Source: an uncultured Chloroflexia bacterium
Lineage (GTDB): Bacteria; Chloroflexota; Limnocylindria; Limnocylindrales; CSP1-4
Direction of reading: 5' to 3'
Assembly: GCA_963833225.1 (NCBI GenBank)
Contig: CAWHXD010000006.1
Span: forward strand, 96,001-160,000
Length of the DNA: 64,000 bases
A program made the position numbers and the translations under genes. Of this stretch, positions 18,434-26,600 are shown piece after piece (position 1 is the stretch's first letter; every line of letters starts with the position of its first letter). Under the pieces are notes generated by a model, which searched no databases, was not told where the DNA came from, and saw nothing but the letters and a program-made list of their open reading frames with translations.

Positions 18434-18805
18434 TGGTGGAGATGGGGGAGAGTCGAACTCCCCGTCCAGAACCCTTCGCCTGGATCCACTACGAGCGTGT
18501 CCGATGATTTTCGTCAACCGGTCGGCCGCCCATCGGCAGGCTTCCGTCCGGTCCATTCACGTGTCCCTAGATCGGGCTTGGCTCCCGGGTACGCGACCTC
18601 TCCGGGGTTGCACCTTCGCTAAGTGACACTTCCACGGCCCGCGAAGGGGAGGCCGCTTCCATGCTCACCTTACCGCCTAAGCGGCGAGGGCGAGAGCAGG
18701 CTGCTTGTTGGCAGTTACTTCTGTTTGCCGCCTGTTTTACGAGGCCTGACGGCACCTCGGCTCGCGTCTCCAGACAGCTGAGCCCTGTCGAAACCACGCA
18801 TCCCC
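18434..18805 (-). ncRNA. ssrA: transfer-messenger RNA
   Basis: 5' GGGGATG..TTCGAC, 3' T-arm GTTCGACTC and CATCTCCACCA; tag ORF after AGTAACT reads ANKQPALALAA* (18712-18677); extended -10 TGcTAGGAT at ~18835-18843. Confidence 0.97.
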
Positions 18806-18932
18806 ACAGGATCGAACCGCTGTTCGGGGCGCGAATCCTAGCACTGGTCCTGCGGCAGGGCGAGCGGACCGTGATGAGGTTGCCCTGCGGGCGCGGTTGA
18901 CATCGGCCGTGGGGCACGCGCACCCTCGGCGC

Positions 18933-19523
18933 ATGACGACGCGACGCGTCTCCTGGCGACGGTCGGACGAGGTCCGGTCGGACGAGGTGTGCACGATCAC
19001 GGTGCGGGATGCCGGCCTGTCCCTTGTCGGGACCGTGCTGGGTGCGGAGGGCGGCGTCCCGGTCCGCACGGAGTACCGGATCCTCACCGATGCCAGCGGT
19101 GCCACGTCGGCGGTCCACGTCCGGGACCTGCGCGGGTTCGGGCAGCGCACCCTGATGCTCGCACGCGATGCGAGAGGTGCCTGGACGCTCGACGGCGTGG
19201 TCATCCGCGAGCTCAAGGGCTGCCTCGACGTCGATCTCGGGTGCAGCCCGTCGACGAACACGCTGCCGATCCGCCGCCTCCACCTGGGCATCGGCAGCTC
19301 GAAGACGGTCAAGGCGGCCATGATCCGGTTCCCTGACCTTGTCGTGGGGCCCGTCGGACAGGTGTACACGCGCGTCGACGAGTTCACGTACCGCTACGCC
19401 GCGGGTTCGTTCGAGGCGGAGCTGATCGTGGACGAGGACGGCGTGGTGGCCCAGTACGCCGGCTGGGAGCGCACGGGCGTGGCGACGGGGCCGGACGACA
19501 CCGCCCCGCTGGACGCGCGGTAG
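18933..19523 (+). CDS. putative glycolipid-binding domain protein
   Basis: GCLDVDLGCSPSTNTLPIRRL and VDEDG motifs. Confidence 0.8.
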   Translation: MTTRRVSWRRSDEVRSDEVCTITVRDAGLSLVGTVLGAEGGVPVRTEYRILTDASGATSAVHVRDLRGFGQRTLMLARDARGAWTLDGVVIRELKGCLDVDLGCSPSTNTLPIRRLHLGIGSSKTVKAAMIRFPDLVVGPVGQVYTRVDEFTYRYAAGSFEAELIVDEDGVVAQYAGWERTGVATGPDDTAPLDAR

Positions 19524-19557
19524 CCGGCACCGTCGAGCGTCGCCCGAGTATCAGCCG

Positions 19558-19965
19558 ATGGAGATCCGCGTTGCCGGGGCAGCCGACCTCGACGCCGTTG
19601 TCGCCCTGTGGCACGTGACCGGGCTCACGCGCCCGTGGAACGACCCGGTCGCCGACTTCGAGCGCGCCCTCGGAGGCGAGGCATCCACGATCCTGGTGGG
19701 CACCGACGGTGGCGAGCTGGCAGCCGTGGCGATGGTCGGCGACGACGGGCACCGTGGCTGGATCTACTACGTTGCCGTCCCCGAAGCGCGACGCGGGACG
19801 GGGCTGGGCGCCGCCATCGTCGATGCGGCCGAGGACTGGCTTCGCGCCCGAGGGTGTCCCAAGGTCCAGCTGATGGTCCGCGAGGAGAACGAGGCGGTCG
19901 TCGGGTTCTACCACGCCCTGGGCTACGAGCGCACCGAGGTCCTGGTGCTTGGCAAGTTCCTCTGA
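19558..19965 (+). CDS. GNAT acetyltransferase (YpeA-like)
   Basis: LTRPWNDP, GDDGHRGWIYYVAV, RGTGLG, GFYHALGY. Confidence 0.9.
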   Translation: MEIRVAGAADLDAVVALWHVTGLTRPWNDPVADFERALGGEASTILVGTDGGELAAVAMVGDDGHRGWIYYVAVPEARRGTGLGAAIVDAAEDWLRARGCPKVQLMVREENEAVVGFYHALGYERTEVLVLGKFL

Positions 19966-20028
19966 GATGGCCCCGCGCCCATCGCCGGAACCTCGGTCGC
20001 GGGTCACAGGAGCCGCTACCATCGGCCG

Positions 20029-20652
20029 ATGCGCCTGATCCCATGGGAGGAGGAGCGCCTCCAGGTCTTCGCCGCCGCCGAGCTCGCCCGGCGCCATCGC
20101 GCGGCGGGCATGCCGCTCAACCACCCGGAGACGATCGCCCTCATCTGTGACGCGATGCTCGAGGCGGCGCGGGCTGGAGCGACCGATGCCGAGGTGGAGG
20201 CGGCCGGCCGCGGGGCGGTGGCGCCCGACCAGGTCATGGACGGCGTTCGGGAGCTGATCCGCGAGGTGCGCCTGGAGGTGCTGCTGGGCGATGGCTCCCG
20301 GCTCATCGTGCTGCAGGACCCGCTCGGCCGCGGGACGCCGCCGGACCCGTTCGGACCGGGGGCGCTGGTGATCGGCGATCCCCGTGAGGTCGAGGTCAAC
20401 GAGGGCCGCGAGGCGATCTCGCTCGAGGTGACGAGCCGGTCGGCACGCCGGATCCGGATCTCGTCCCACTATCCGTTCCACCGCGTCAACCCGCGCCTCG
20501 AGTTGGATCGCGAGGCGGCCCGCGGGTTCCGTCTCGACCTGCCGGCCGGCGCGTACGAGGGCTGGGAGCCGGGCGAGACGAAGACGGTGCGGCTCGTGCG
20601 CTATGCGGGAGCTGGCGGGATCGACGACGACGCGCCCGAGCCGGAACGGTGA
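20029..20652 (+). CDS. urease-like gamma/beta subunit fusion, divergent
   Basis: gamma: EEERL..AAELARR..LNHPE; beta: NEGR..SSHYPF..NPRL..GFRLDLPAG..EPGETKTVRLV. Confidence 0.88.
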   Translation: MRLIPWEEERLQVFAAAELARRHRAAGMPLNHPETIALICDAMLEAARAGATDAEVEAAGRGAVAPDQVMDGVRELIREVRLEVLLGDGSRLIVLQDPLGRGTPPDPFGPGALVIGDPREVEVNEGREAISLEVTSRSARRIRISSHYPFHRVNPRLELDREAARGFRLDLPAGAYEGWEPGETKTVRLVRYAGAGGIDDDAPEPER

Positions 20653-22367
20653 GCCGTCTCTCCCCCGAGGAGCTCCGGGCGCGGTACGGCGCGACGACCG
20701 GGGACCGCGTGCGCCTCGGCGACACGGACCTGTGGGTGAAGGTCGCCGAGGACCGGACGGCGCGCGGCGACGAGCCGCTCTGGGGCTACGCGAAGAACCT
20801 CCGCTCGCGAATGACGCAATGGGACCAGGCGGCCGGGCCATCGGAGCTCGATGTGGTCCTGGTCGGTGCCCTGGTGATCGACCCCGTGGTCGGCGTGGTC
20901 AAGGCGGACATCGGGATCAAGGACGGCCGGATCGCGGGCATCGGGCGGGCGGGGAGTCCGGCGATCAGCGACGGGATCGACCTCGTGGTCGGCCCGAACA
21001 CGAAGGCGTACATGGCCTACGGGCTGATCGCAACGCCGGGCGCGGTGGACTCACACGTTCACACCATCGGCCCCGAGCTGCTCCCGCCGGCGCTCGCAGC
21101 CGGGGTGACGACGCTCATCACGGCCGGGTTCGAGGAGCCGCCGTTCGCGATGGAGCGCGTCCTCGCGAGTCTCGAGTCGTGGCCGGTGAACGTCGGGATG
21201 CAGGCGGGGGCCAGGGCGATGAACGAGGGCCACCTCGACAGCCTCGTGGATGCCGGCGCGATCGGGTTCAAGATCCACGAGGACAACGGCGCCTATCCCG
21301 AGCTGATCGACTGGGTGCTGCGCTACGCGGATGCGCGCGACCTCTCGGTCTCCCTCCACACGGACGGGCTCCACGAGTCGGCCGAGCTCGAGGACACGGT
21401 CGCGGCGATTGCCGGGCGAACCGTGCACGCCTACCACGTCGAAGGGTCCGGCGGCGGCCACGTGCCGGACCTCCTGGGACTCGTGCGCGAGCCATCGATC
21501 CTGTGCTCGTCCACCACGCCGACCTTGCCGTTCGGGGTCCACGCTGCGGCCGAGCACCTGCCGATGACCGTCCTCAACCACGGGCTGTCATGGGACATCC
21601 CGGGCGATGTCGAGCTGGTGCGCGAGCGGATCATCGAAGCGCGGATGGCTGCCGAGGGGCCGCTCCACGAGCTGGGCGCGATCGGGATCGTCAACTCCGA
21701 CTCCCAGGGCATGGGCCGCATCGGCGAGACGGTCCGCCGGACGTTCCAGCTGGCGCACGTGATGAAGGCCTGGCGACGCTCCGCGGCGGCCGAGGGCGTC
21801 CCGGGGCTCCCACCGGACCCTGGTCTCGTCGATCCGGACGACCGCGACGACAGCGAGCGGGTCCTGCGCTACCTGGCCAAGGTGACCGTCGAACCGGCGA
21901 TCACGCACGGGGTCTCAGCGCACGTCGGGTCGCTGCAGCCCGGGCGCATCGCCGACGTCGTGCTGTGGTCGCCCGGGTTCTTCGGCGTCAAGCCGGAGTG
22001 GGTGTTCAAGGGCGGCTTCCCGGCCTGGGGACCGCTCGGCGACGGCAACGCCTCGCTGGAGCGCGCGGAGCCCACGCGGTACCGCGCCGACTGGGCGGGC
22101 GTCGCGACGGCCGCGTGGCGCTCGTCCGTGACATTCGTGGCGTCGTCGGTGGACCGCGACGCGCTCGCCCGGCGGCTGGGGACGCGGCGGACCCTACTGG
22201 CGGCCACGGGACAGCGAGGGCTCACGCGCGCGTCGCTTGCCCGGAACCGCGCCACGGCGCCCGTGGACATCGATGTCCGGACTGGCGAGGTGTCCCTGGA
22301 CGGGCGCCGACTCGCGGTGGAACCCGTGAGCGAGGTCCCGCTCAGCCGCCGCTACCTGATGCGGTAG
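20649..22367 (+). CDS. urease-like alpha subunit, divergent active site
   Basis: DSHVH, FKIHED, LHTD, YHVEGSGGGH, NSDSQ metal-ligand motifs; flap and substrate loop altered. Confidence 0.9.
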   Translation: MSRLSPEELRARYGATTGDRVRLGDTDLWVKVAEDRTARGDEPLWGYAKNLRSRMTQWDQAAGPSELDVVLVGALVIDPVVGVVKADIGIKDGRIAGIGRAGSPAISDGIDLVVGPNTKAYMAYGLIATPGAVDSHVHTIGPELLPPALAAGVTTLITAGFEEPPFAMERVLASLESWPVNVGMQAGARAMNEGHLDSLVDAGAIGFKIHEDNGAYPELIDWVLRYADARDLSVSLHTDGLHESAELEDTVAAIAGRTVHAYHVEGSGGGHVPDLLGLVREPSILCSSTTPTLPFGVHAAAEHLPMTVLNHGLSWDIPGDVELVRERIIEARMAAEGPLHELGAIGIVNSDSQGMGRIGETVRRTFQLAHVMKAWRRSAAAEGVPGLPPDPGLVDPDDRDDSERVLRYLAKVTVEPAITHGVSAHVGSLQPGRIADVVLWSPGFFGVKPEWVFKGGFPAWGPLGDGNASLERAEPTRYRADWAGVATAAWRSSVTFVASSVDRDALARRLGTRRTLLAATGQRGLTRASLARNRATAPVDIDVRTGEVSLDGRRLAVEPVSEVPLSRRYLMR

Positions 22368-22405
22368 CGGGAGCCTCCACCCGTAGCGGGTCAATGGGCT
22401 CCCTC

Positions 22406-22560
22406 GGTCGCTGCCGGGGACCACGCGTCGCGGGTACACCCGCAATCAGGTCTGCGCGGGGCGTGACGGTCCCCGACATGACCGGTCCCGGCGCCTGGCC
22501 AGGCCATGTCAGGGCCCCCGAGTCCCCGCCTACGGGGGCCGAGACCCCGACCTAGCGACC
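22406..22560 (-). ncRNA. candidate structured RNA with a 6S-like rod and central bubble
   Basis: Nested complementary helices in a 277-bp gap between convergent genes; G-U pairs favour the minus strand. Confidence 0.4.
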
Positions 22561-22644
22561 CGGGGTCCCCGCGGCGTCTCCGCGGAAGATCGCGGCATGA
22601 TCCCGCGCCGAGAGGCGCGCGCGTGCGGTGCGAAACGTGGTGAC

Positions 22645-23697
22645 CTACCAGATGTCCCCGACCGTATACCCCTCCGGAAACGGGTCGCTCGGGTCCACCA
22701 CGTACGACGCAAAGCCCGTGATCCAGGCGGTGCCCGTGATGGTTGGCACGACAGCCGTGCGCTCTCCGATCCGGGTCTCCTCCACCAGGCGTCCCGTGAA
22801 CACCGTCCCGAGGATGCCCTCGTGCCGGAAGTCCTCGTCCAGCCCCAGCCGGCCCTTCGCATGGAGCACAGCCATCTTGGCGCACGTCCCCGTCCCGCAC
22901 GGCGAACGGTCGATGACGCCCGTCCACGTGGACGGCTTCGACCAGTCCAGCGCCCCCGTGGACACCGTGACCACGTTCCGCCACGAGTTCATCGCGTCGT
23001 GCGCGGGACCCGACAGCTGCCCGATCGTGATCCCCGCGAACCCCGGCTGCTCCGGGTGGACCACCGGCAGCTGCTCCGCCGCGGCCGCCTTGATCATCTC
23101 GGTGACACGCGTGATGTCCCGACCCTCGTCGGGCACGAGCCGGAACCCCAGCGCCTCCGCGTCGGCGATGACGTAGAACATGCCCCCGTAGGCCACGTCG
23201 ACGACGACCGTGCCCAGCTGCGGGACCTCGATCGGGACGTCGAGGTGGGTCGCGAAGGCCGGCACGTTGCGGAACGTCACGCCGGTGACCTTGCCGTTGG
23301 CGCAGGTCGCCCGGATCCGGATCAGGCCGGCGGGGGCCTCGAGCACCACCTCGGTGACGGGCTCGGTCATCGGCAGCATGCCCGTCTCGAGCAGCACCGT
23401 CGCCACGCAGATCGTGTTGGTGCCCGACATCCCCGGGTACTCGACGTGCTCCATGATCACGTAGCCGGCATCGGCCTCGGGGCGCGTCGGGGGCAGGATC
23501 ACGTTGGCGCACAGGGCCGGGTAGCCGCGCGGCTCGCGGAGCATCAGGCGGCGGAGCTCGTCCCCTTGCTGCTCGAGGTGGCGGGCCTTCTCGAGCATCG
23601 TCGCGCCCGGCACGTCCAGCACGCCGCCGACGATGACCCGGCCCGGCTCGCCCGCCGCGTGGGCGTCGACCGCCTGGAGCATCCGCGCGAGCCGCAT
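22645..23697 (-). CDS. proline racemase family protein, Ser/Cys active-site pair
   Basis: DAHAAGEPGR, MLREPRG, PGMSGTN (Ser in place of the first catalytic Cys), DRSPCGTG. Confidence 0.9.
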   Translation of the reverse strand: MRLARMLQAVDAHAAGEPGRVIVGGVLDVPGATMLEKARHLEQQGDELRRLMLREPRGYPALCANVILPPTRPEADAGYVIMEHVEYPGMSGTNTICVATVLLETGMLPMTEPVTEVVLEAPAGLIRIRATCANGKVTGVTFRNVPAFATHLDVPIEVPQLGTVVVDVAYGGMFYVIADAEALGFRLVPDEGRDITRVTEMIKAAAAEQLPVVHPEQPGFAGITIGQLSGPAHDAMNSWRNVVTVSTGALDWSKPSTWTGVIDRSPCGTGTCAKMAVLHAKGRLGLDEDFRHEGILGTVFTGRLVEETRIGERTAVVPTITGTAWITGFASYVVDPSDPFPEGYTVGDIW

Positions 23698-25984: not shown

Positions 25985-26446
25985 CTACCGGCGCCGTGCT
26001 TCGGCTACGGCGCGGTCCATGTCCCGCTTGCTGTCCCGCTCCTGGATCTCGCGCCGGCGGTCCCAGGTCTGCTTTCCGCGCGCCAGGCCCAGGAGCAGCT
26101 TGGCCTTGCCCCGATCGTTGATGTAGATCGAGAGCGGCACCAGGGTGAGGCCCTTGGCCTTGGTCTTGCCCAGCAGCTCATCGATCTCATCGCGGTGGAG
26201 GAGCAGCTTGCGGGCGCGCTTGGGCTCGTGGTTGAACCGGACGTCGGCGGATTCCCACGGCGCGATGTGCAACCCGATGATCCACGCCTCGTCACGCTCG
26301 ATGCGCGCGTACGCATCGGCCAGGCTGACCTTGTGCGCCCGGACGCTCTTGATCTCGGTGCCGCGCAGCACGATGCCCGCCTCGAAGGTGTCCTCGACGC
26401 TGTACTCGTGGCGCGCTCGTCGGTTCTGGGCGATGGTCTCGCCCAT
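25985..26446 (-). CDS. smpB: SsrA-binding protein
   Basis: NRRARHEY, EAGIVLRGTEIKS, RKLLLH, ARGK..DRR. Confidence 0.97.
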   Translation of the reverse strand: MGETIAQNRRARHEYSVEDTFEAGIVLRGTEIKSVRAHKVSLADAYARIERDEAWIIGLHIAPWESADVRFNHEPKRARKLLLHRDEIDELLGKTKAKGLTLVPLSIYINDRGKAKLLLGLARGKQTWDRRREIQERDSKRDMDRAVAEARRR

Positions 26447-26568
26447 CGGTGGCTCCTCTCGTGGTGGCAGGCCAGTGTCGCACGGGGCGGGCTGGGGCTC
26501 CGGACGCCGGGCCCCGATGGGCCCCGGGCGACGGGGCCTGGATGGGCCCGGCGACGGCGCCGGACGCA

Positions 26569-26600
26569 CGAACGCCGGCCCGTTGCCGGACCGGCGTTCG
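26569..26600 (-). terminator. GC-rich hairpin with GCAA tetraloop (terminator-like)
   Basis: CGAACGCCGGTCCG-GCAA-CGGGCCGGCGTTCG on the minus strand; no strong U tract. Confidence 0.5.

Follow-up and report, generated by a model that had tools for sequence, protein, structure and literature searches.

A urease-family gene pair from an uncultured Limnocylindrales bacterium belongs to a conserved clade with a shortened active-site loop and a predicted chaperone-independent maturation

In a stretch of 64,000 nucleotides from an uncultured Chloroflexia bacterium (contig CAWHXD010000006.1, positions 96,001 to 160,000; hereafter "the window"), two adjacent genes encode proteins related to the structural subunits of urease. 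The pair belongs to a group of urease-like proteins, here called class A, that appears to be a real, selected, chaperone-independent branch of the ureases with a rebuilt active-site entrance. Our best reading is that the pair encodes an active urease that would need none of the usual chaperones. As for the fuller proposal, in which the pair is an intact, selected member of class A that is matured without UreD, UreF or UreG and has urea as its most likely substrate, we give it about an even chance of being correct. The features of the pair are as follows.

20029..20652, plus strand: ureAB-like gene, fused urease gamma and beta domains, 207 amino acids (aa), ATG start (open reading frame and Pfam)
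20649..22367, plus strand: ureC-like gene, urease alpha (catalytic) subunit of class A, 572 aa, GTG start (open reading frame and Pfam)
21117..21143, plus strand: shortened active-site loop ITAGFEEPP, alpha residues 157-165 (alignments)
21570..21587, plus strand: mobile-flap segment VLNHGL, alpha residues 308-313 (alignment)

An earlier note on this DNA, made from the letters alone, had described two uninterrupted open reading frames (ORFs), a fused gamma-beta gene and an alpha gene, and this description was borne out. The genes overlap by 4 bp, with the GTG start of ureC lying within the GTGA that ends ureAB, and they are predicted to be translationally coupled. Using Pfam, we identified Urease_gamma (residues 1-98, 93.7 bits) and Urease_beta (residues 110-196, 87.6 bits) in the first product and Urease_alpha and Amidohydro_1 in the second; all domain matches of the pair exceed their cut-offs. 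Against NCBIfam subfamily models, the alpha protein scored 618 bits on NF009686 (cut-off 354) and the ureAB product scored 195 on the gamma/beta model, below the cut-off of 243. The top solved relatives are H. pylori UreA for the ureAB product (1e9y_A, E-value 1.2e-35) and H. pylori UreB for alpha (1e9z_B, E-value 3.4e-136). AlphaFold, run on alpha with 24 sequences, returned a model with a predicted template-modelling (TM) score of 0.90 and a mean predicted local distance difference test (pLDDT) score of 82.8, and the residue blocks that span the loop (151-170) have pLDDT values of 85 and 76. Superposition of the model on solved urease alpha chains gave TM scores of 0.88-0.90; based on this model, the urease fold is intact. 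The source genome (3.89 Mb in 20 contigs, 86% complete) contains one Urease_alpha gene.

Every motif named in the earlier note was found at its place in the alpha ORF: DSHVH at residue 134, ITAGFEEP within residues 154-169, FKIHEDNG at 207, LHTD at 236, YHVEG at 262, VLNHGL at 308 and NSDSQGMG at 349. The corresponding ligands and catalytic residues are H136, H138, K208, H210, D212, H237, H263, H311, R327 and D351, which by alignment make up a complete dinuclear-site set, including the Lys that is carbamylated in ureases, and the full set of catalytic residues (substrate-polarising His, Asp, flap His and Arg). Three substitutions accompany this set, namely N310 for the flap Cys, G312 for the second flap His and G354 for the Ala of DSQAMG. 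Aligned to H. pylori UreB, the loop of the window protein shows two gaps, of 6 and 5 residues. The loss amounts to 11 residues, since the offset to K. aerogenes numbering is +2 ahead of the loop and -9 past it; the shortening proposed in the earlier note thus stands, with its estimate of about 10 residues corrected by one. The K. aerogenes numbering agrees with the names of variant structures (H134, K217, H219, D221, C319, H320).

Based on this loop, the alpha proteins were assigned to the following classes.

Canonical: GGGTGPAxGTxATTCTPG; no length change
Class M: GGGLGPVTVGICSGG; 3 residues shorter; C-H-H flap kept
Class I: GMGxGGVFDVGVNP; 4 residues shorter
Class B: TGGLNDNPA; about 10 residues shorter
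Class A (window): T[AG]GF-x-EPP; 11 residues shorter

Beyond close hits, sequences came from a search of representatives, from 14 genome loci in Actinomycetota (Euzebyaceae, Egibacteraceae, Streptosporangiaceae and others) and Dormibacterota, and from 80 metagenome loci. We inferred a tree of 102 rows with an IQ-TREE quick search (LG+C20) after removing the loop columns, with the canonical class as root and with support from the Shimodaira-Hasegawa-like approximate likelihood ratio test (SH-aLRT). The rows omitted were seven representatives without metal ligands, locus L038, 11 of 16 near-duplicate genus rows, the frameshifted or cut loci L025, L039 and L040, and seven metagenome loci with <480 aligned residues.

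Even with the loop columns excluded, class A formed a single clade of 68 rows (SH-aLRT 100), and A plus B formed a single clade of 81 rows (support 98). The canonical class (support 97) and class M (support 99) were each one group, and class I was a grade. Class A members come from Limnocylindria-type Chloroflexota, Actinomycetota and Dormibacterota. The window alpha protein was placed in a Limnocylindria-type clade of 35 rows (support 100) and, inside it, in a genus clade of nine rows (support 100). The changes define a clade and are not private drift of this genome, which answers the check by phylogeny that the earlier note had proposed: homologues with the loop deletion do form a fully supported clade. 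The best 120 database hits of the window protein are all at least 80% identical to it, and the few named ones are Chloroflexota or Limnocylindrales bins. In one actinobacterial subclade of class A, gamma and beta are separate small genes (L031, 8061-8363; L067, 2623-3176).

Across the 68 class A rows, the equivalents of K. aerogenes H134, H136, K217, H219, D221, H246, H272, H320 and D360 are kept in every row, and the equivalent of R336 (R338 in H. pylori) is kept in 64. H320 is the flap His. The flap Cys position reads Asn in 34 rows, Val in 32 and Ser in 2, and the position after the flap His reads Gly in 57, Glu in 8, Ala in 2 and Asn in 1, whereas the flap C and H are retained in 9/9 canonical and M rows. 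Throughout class A we found the loop core T[AG]GF-x-EP, in which the first Glu is variable (E, D, T, N or Q) and the second is invariant. Of the altered motifs listed in the earlier note, the shortened loop and the missing flap Cys are therefore features of class A as a whole. The others have a different reach: HEDNG is a genus trait (9/68 rows; the position is otherwise W in 29, Y in 24 and F in 6), the exact flap string VLNHGL is likewise confined to the genus, and DSQGMG is wider, being common to classes M, I, B and A.

An alignment of fourteen class A proteins drawn from three phyla has a mean column identity of 75%. For 66 pairs among 12 genus orthologues, the ratio of nonsynonymous to synonymous substitution rates (dN/dS) has a median of 0.17 and a maximum of 0.26; the ureC-like gene is under purifying selection. 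These values, the translational coupling of the subunit genes and the ligands and catalytic residues intact in 68/68 rows all argue against an inactive relic or a non-catalytic protein, which we regard as highly unlikely. A relic would be consistent with the broken copies that occur within the genus, where the alpha gene is split by a frameshift or fragmentary in four genomes (G001:C2:148738-150454, G016, G017:C5 and G059, the last being locus L025) and reduced to a C-terminal remnant in two (G003:C19 and G010:C7), and with the lack of a copy over cut-off in 14 of the 61 genus genomes. The broken copies may reflect either decay in particular lineages or assembly error. Degenerate alpha homologues without His ligands also exist elsewhere. 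These are full-length proteins (P0142, P0170, P0183, P0191, P0193, P0198 and P0212; Serratia marcescens and Wenjunlia vitaminophila are among the sources) in which several of the His, Lys or Asp ligands are missing, and they look like pseudo-ureases.

Urease is the textbook nickel enzyme that requires a dedicated, GTP-driven delivery machine. We used TBLASTN with UreG, UreD, UreE and UreF from canonical loci as queries, and no match was found anywhere in the 64-kb window, in agreement with the earlier note, which had reported no ureD, ureE, ureF or ureG there. Its proposed search of the whole genome had the same outcome, as family searches of the source genome for UreG, UreD and UreF gave no match at an E-value of 0.01 or better. 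Of the 61 genus genomes, 47 have a Urease_alpha match over cut-off and none has such a match to ureG, for which one sub-threshold match of 48 bits was seen. A single full-length urease alpha is encoded by each of the 14 further carrier genomes (one of them, G085, also has a marginal second match of 23 bits), and ureG was over cut-off in none of the 14, in which four matches scored 23-45 bits. At the level of loci, TBLASTN helper matches were absent from 71 class A loci and 12 genus loci (0/83, with ~724 kb of class A flank), from all five class I loci (0/5), and from all 14 loci labelled B by pattern; among the latter, L144 has an M-type loop and only a short stretch of flank downstream.

The same metagenome scan provided a positive control: in canonical and M-class loci, Pfam identified ureG, ureD, ureE and ureF directly downstream, and TBLASTN helper matches flank 2/2 canonical and 3/3 M loci. 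The class M loci (L141, L143, L145 and L144, whose record is labelled marine) combine the 3-residue-shorter loop GGGLGPVTVGICSGG with DSQGMG and a C-H-H flap, and ureG/D/E/F genes adjoin L141, L143 and L145. Because class M keeps these genes, a loop change alone does not imply helper loss. An ordinary nickel urease whose ureDEFG genes were missed through genome incompleteness is the least probable of the explanations considered and barely plausible. The source genome is only 86% complete and many relatives are fragmented metagenome bins, as this explanation would have it; however, among the ureG-negative genomes are single-contig assemblies and 22 genus genomes with a completeness of 90% or more, helpers adjoin all five canonical or M-class loci of the scan, and the UreD-docking residues are replaced. 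With regard to metal supply, no NicO transporter was found in the source genome, NicO being the one type of nickel importer that the search covered, and the cobW family gave two weak matches there (32 and 26 bits).

The docking residues are known from H. pylori urease. In Nim et al. (2023, PMC10121161), Lys219 is described as buried, and UreD binding shifts the Gly-rich loop and residues 330-340, with R338 and R340 flipping towards UreD. The same study reports that D336A and Y543A abolish activation and that D336, R340 and Y543 are required for UreD docking and the nickel tunnel. At these three positions, 9/9 canonical and M rows have an acidic residue, an Arg and an aromatic residue. The class A rows have R (44), A (8), L (6) or D (3) at D336, H (51), L (8), R (8) or I (1) at R340, and G (58), a gap (6), A (3) or Q (1) at Y543; the window protein has R325, I329 and G546. 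Since these residues are replaced, the alpha subunit has lost the docking surface together with the helper genes. The earlier note had raised a different maturation route, and that suggestion gains support from a clade present in three phyla, from carriers with no ureG over cut-off and from the replaced docking residues.

Maturation without the usual helpers has precedents. The iron urease UreA2B2 of Helicobacter mustelae works without nickel helper genes, and Bacillus subtilis UreABC is an active urease that matures without the usual helpers in a genome that lacks ureDEFG; our B. subtilis control genome gave a Urease_alpha match and none for ureG, UreD or UreF. The B. subtilis catalytic subunit is canonical in sequence, unlike that of the window. 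H. mustelae UreA2B2 (PDB 3QGA) has the same two-gene form with fused gamma-beta as the window, but its alpha chain is not closer to the window protein than are other ureases (3qga_C, E-value 1.4e-129; 1e9z_B, E-value 3.4e-136), and H. mustelae is a host-associated Epsilonproteobacterium, whereas the window comes from a soil lineage. Compared with canonical UreABC plus UreDEFG (K. aerogenes 2KAU, S. pasteurii, H. pylori 1E9Z), the window pair shares the three domains, the fold, ~40% identity, the metal ligands, the carbamylatable Lys and the catalytic His, Asp, His and Arg; it differs in the 11-residue loop deletion, in an N-H-G rather than C-H-H flap, in DSQGMG rather than DSQAMG, in the replaced UreD-docking residues and in a genome in which no ureDFG was found.

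Further from urease, allantoinase and hydantoinase/dihydropyrimidinase are the next-best structural matches to the alpha model (TM 0.42-0.48). They share the superfamily barrel, but with 14-17% identity and without the gamma and beta subunits or the urease N-terminal domain. Allantoinases and hydantoinases have carbamylated-Lys dinuclear sites that load metal themselves, and they act on N-substituted ureido groups without chaperones. By analogy, the metal centre of class A would assemble unaided. The loop deletion may open the normally buried site to helper-free metal loading, at least as much as it would affect the choice of substrate, although it may also broaden specificity to N-substituted ureas. 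Hydrolysis of the ureido C-N bond would then follow the usual urease mechanism, in which a bridging hydroxide attacks and the flap His protonates.

In Streptomyces coelicolor (SCO5525-SCO5526) and S. avermitilis, a fused gamma-beta gene and an alpha gene form a cluster without accessory genes, as noted in a 2008 paper (PMC2492869). What that paper records for these ure(AB)C clusters is gene order only. Unlike the window genome, which lacks a canonical cluster, S. coelicolor possesses a full one in addition. The ligand-less Wenjunlia protein (P0193) was considered as a proxy for this second Streptomyces urease and was set aside, as it stands alone with no close relative in our set; its nearest relatives are proteins of 573 to 582 residues that are 56-60% identical to it and mostly named Streptomyces ureases.

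The gene neighborhoods of class A loci bear on the substrate. Claims about neighbors are based on TBLASTN and Pfam/NCBIfam hits and were kept off ORF clusters, because ORF calling by codon-position GC gave antisense artefacts. A gene for an agmatine-deiminase-like protein (348 bits on PAD_porph; 293-326 bits on TIGR03380, for which the cut-off is 381.8) is inserted between ureAB and ureC, with 12-50 bp separating it from ureC, in six loci (L030, L032, L034, L071, L072 and L073), just 5' of ureA or ureAB in four (L031, L066, L067 and L082), and divergent from ureC in two (L037 and L039). In the genus locus L025, such a gene is found 2.4 kb upstream on the opposite strand. Agmatinase, identified by TIGR01230 scores above the cut-off, is encoded immediately upstream of ureAB in Dormibacterota locus L036, whose ureC is followed by a DUF1989 gene, and immediately downstream of the class B ureC in L113; no agmatinase link was seen in the window. 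Because agmatinase releases urea and agmatine deiminase releases N-carbamoylputrescine, the context backs both urea and an N-substituted urea, according to lineage.

The source genome encodes an agmatinase-family protein (193.7 bits; cut-off 174.3), and urea generated in the cell by such a ureohydrolase would be the likeliest substrate here. We propose this intracellular source because the genome has no other urea-breakdown route and no urea importer; urea carboxylase was among the functions not found in it. The agmatinase profile is present in 58/61 genus genomes, so it cannot discriminate between the readings, and the absences of UrtA and urea carboxylase do not separate them either. For the window gene we place urea ahead as substrate, with a confidence that is evenly divided.

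Several observations weigh against urea, or against a urease in the usual sense. The alpha protein scored 537 bits on the NCBI urease equivalog TIGR01792, below the cut-off of 680. In canonical ureases the deleted loop carries the Ala whose carbonyl contacts urea; because this Ala and the flap Cys are both lost, urea may bind poorly. The agmatinase link consists of two loci only, one of them class A, and the UrtA urea importer is over cut-off in none of the 61 genus genomes. The agmatine-deiminase-like gene is linked in 12 of the 24 HEDW (actinobacterial)-type class A loci with at least 1.7 kb of upstream sequence, and this link favors an N-substituted urea, because the product of the deiminase is an N-substituted urea and not urea. 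In addition, the best 120 hits of the window protein include no cultured carrier, and the same is true of the best 120 hits of the L030 protein.

The main rival reading, which we consider possible but not probable, is therefore an N-carbamoyl-amine as substrate. In this form the protein would be a ureido-amine amidohydrolase acting on N-carbamoylputrescine or citrulline-like compounds in place of AguB; the alkyl chain would fit into the space left by the deletion, and the distal amine would be bound by the conserved Glu of the G-F-x-E-P loop. The gene orders (ureAB-PAD-ureC at six loci, PAD-ureA-ureB-ureC at four and divergent pairs at two, where PAD denotes the deiminase-like gene) speak for it, as do the concentration of the link in one subclade (support 96), 10 of whose 14 rows carry it, the nearness of the PAD genes to agmatine deiminase, and a pocket whose wall is deleted while the loop core is conserved. 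However, the link is found in 0/16 HEDY/F/N (Limnocylindria)-type loci and not in the window, the PAD genes fall short of the agmatine deiminase cut-off, PAD_porph occurs in only 10/61 genus genomes compared with the urease in 47/61, and the agmatinase neighbors indicate urea.

AguB is over cut-off in 0/5 deiminase-linked genomes, two of which have best hits of ~100 bits, but the other three, and the source genome, have hits of 190-265 bits; because of these hits, the argument from a missing AguB fails for most of these genomes. The source genome's only agmatine-deiminase-like gene (L064, G000:C19, 3938-9263) is not linked to the urease and lies among F420 genes (cofD-like, cofE and an F420-dependent LLM oxidoreductase), surroundings that are odd for a polyamine enzyme. 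The earlier note had suggested a bulkier substrate; in favor of this, the deiminase gene lies within the operon in one actinobacterial subclade, but an agmatinase gene abuts the urease genes in two other loci, and neither link occurs in the window's own lineage. Extended to the whole class, the idea would make class A chaperone-free, possibly non-nickel ureidohydrolases whose native substrates are N-carbamoyl-amines such as N-carbamoylputrescine, performing the last step of the agmatine deiminase route; we offer this version only tentatively.

If the substrate were some different small C-N compound (guanidine, formamide or another small amide, for instance), the guanidino-enzyme neighbors would belong to a shared nitrogen-scavenging regulon rather than a pathway. 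The remodelled pocket fits this, as do the varied neighbors, which include DUF1989 in L036, Amidohydro_3 genes near seven class A loci and an MFS transporter upstream on the same strand in four. We nevertheless consider it unlikely, given that the whole urease catalytic set is kept, that no neighbor is constant over the clade and that no riboswitch, guanidine types included, was found at Rfam gathering thresholds in 20 class A loci and the window. The Rfam matches in these sequences were tRNAs, a tmRNA and one 5_ureB_sRNA antisense to a coding region (L067).

Returning to the reading of class A as chaperone-independent ureases, these genes form a large conserved soil clade in which the catalytic core is kept, the active-site wall and UreD-docking residues are gone and no co-occurrence with ureG was seen. 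The clade could show how a urease-type centre assembles unaided and with which metal. In the full-text literature, supplements aside, we found no study that deals with this clade or with ureases coupled to agmatine deiminase. In metagenomes of soils and wetlands, class A genes count as "urease"; should their products depend on another metal, escape nickel limitation, differ in their response to urease inhibitors or prefer N-carbamoyl-amines, gene-based estimates of ureolysis would need revision, as would estimates of polyamine and guanidino nitrogen turnover. If they are instead an N-carbamoyl-amine family, they would constitute an unrecognised enzyme of uncultured soil Actinomycetota, Chloroflexota and Dormibacterota that is mis-annotated everywhere as urease. 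The ureAB-deiminase-ureC operon is a concrete pairing for bench testing.

Two genus genomes carry a second urease, which belongs to class I and has the loop shortened by 4 residues (G067:C253, locus L062, 9572-11248 on the minus strand, and G068:C247). Its gamma gene is separate, and it adjoins genes for an Opp/Nik-type ABC transporter (SBP_bac_5) and HipA; ureG was not over cut-off in either genome.

A scan of positions 18800-22800 of the window returned 0 promoters and 0 terminators. For positions 19500-22500, no RNA run was listed as containing the stretch, and all 18 runs shared only a small part of its sequence words. Upstream of the urease pair on the same strand are a putative glycolipid-binding gene and a GNAT gene, and a proline-racemase-family gene is convergent with the pair. 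Two features flank the pair on either side, about 7 kb apart.

18434-18805, minus strand: tmRNA (Rfam, 137.9 bits)
25985-26569, minus strand: smpB (Pfam, 192.7 bits)

Beyond smpB are genes for an S41 peptidase, FtsX and an ABC ATPase, and an EamA gene lies further out in the window. The downstream gene block of the window is conserved across Limnocylindria-type loci, which looks like inherited chromosome order and not an operon.

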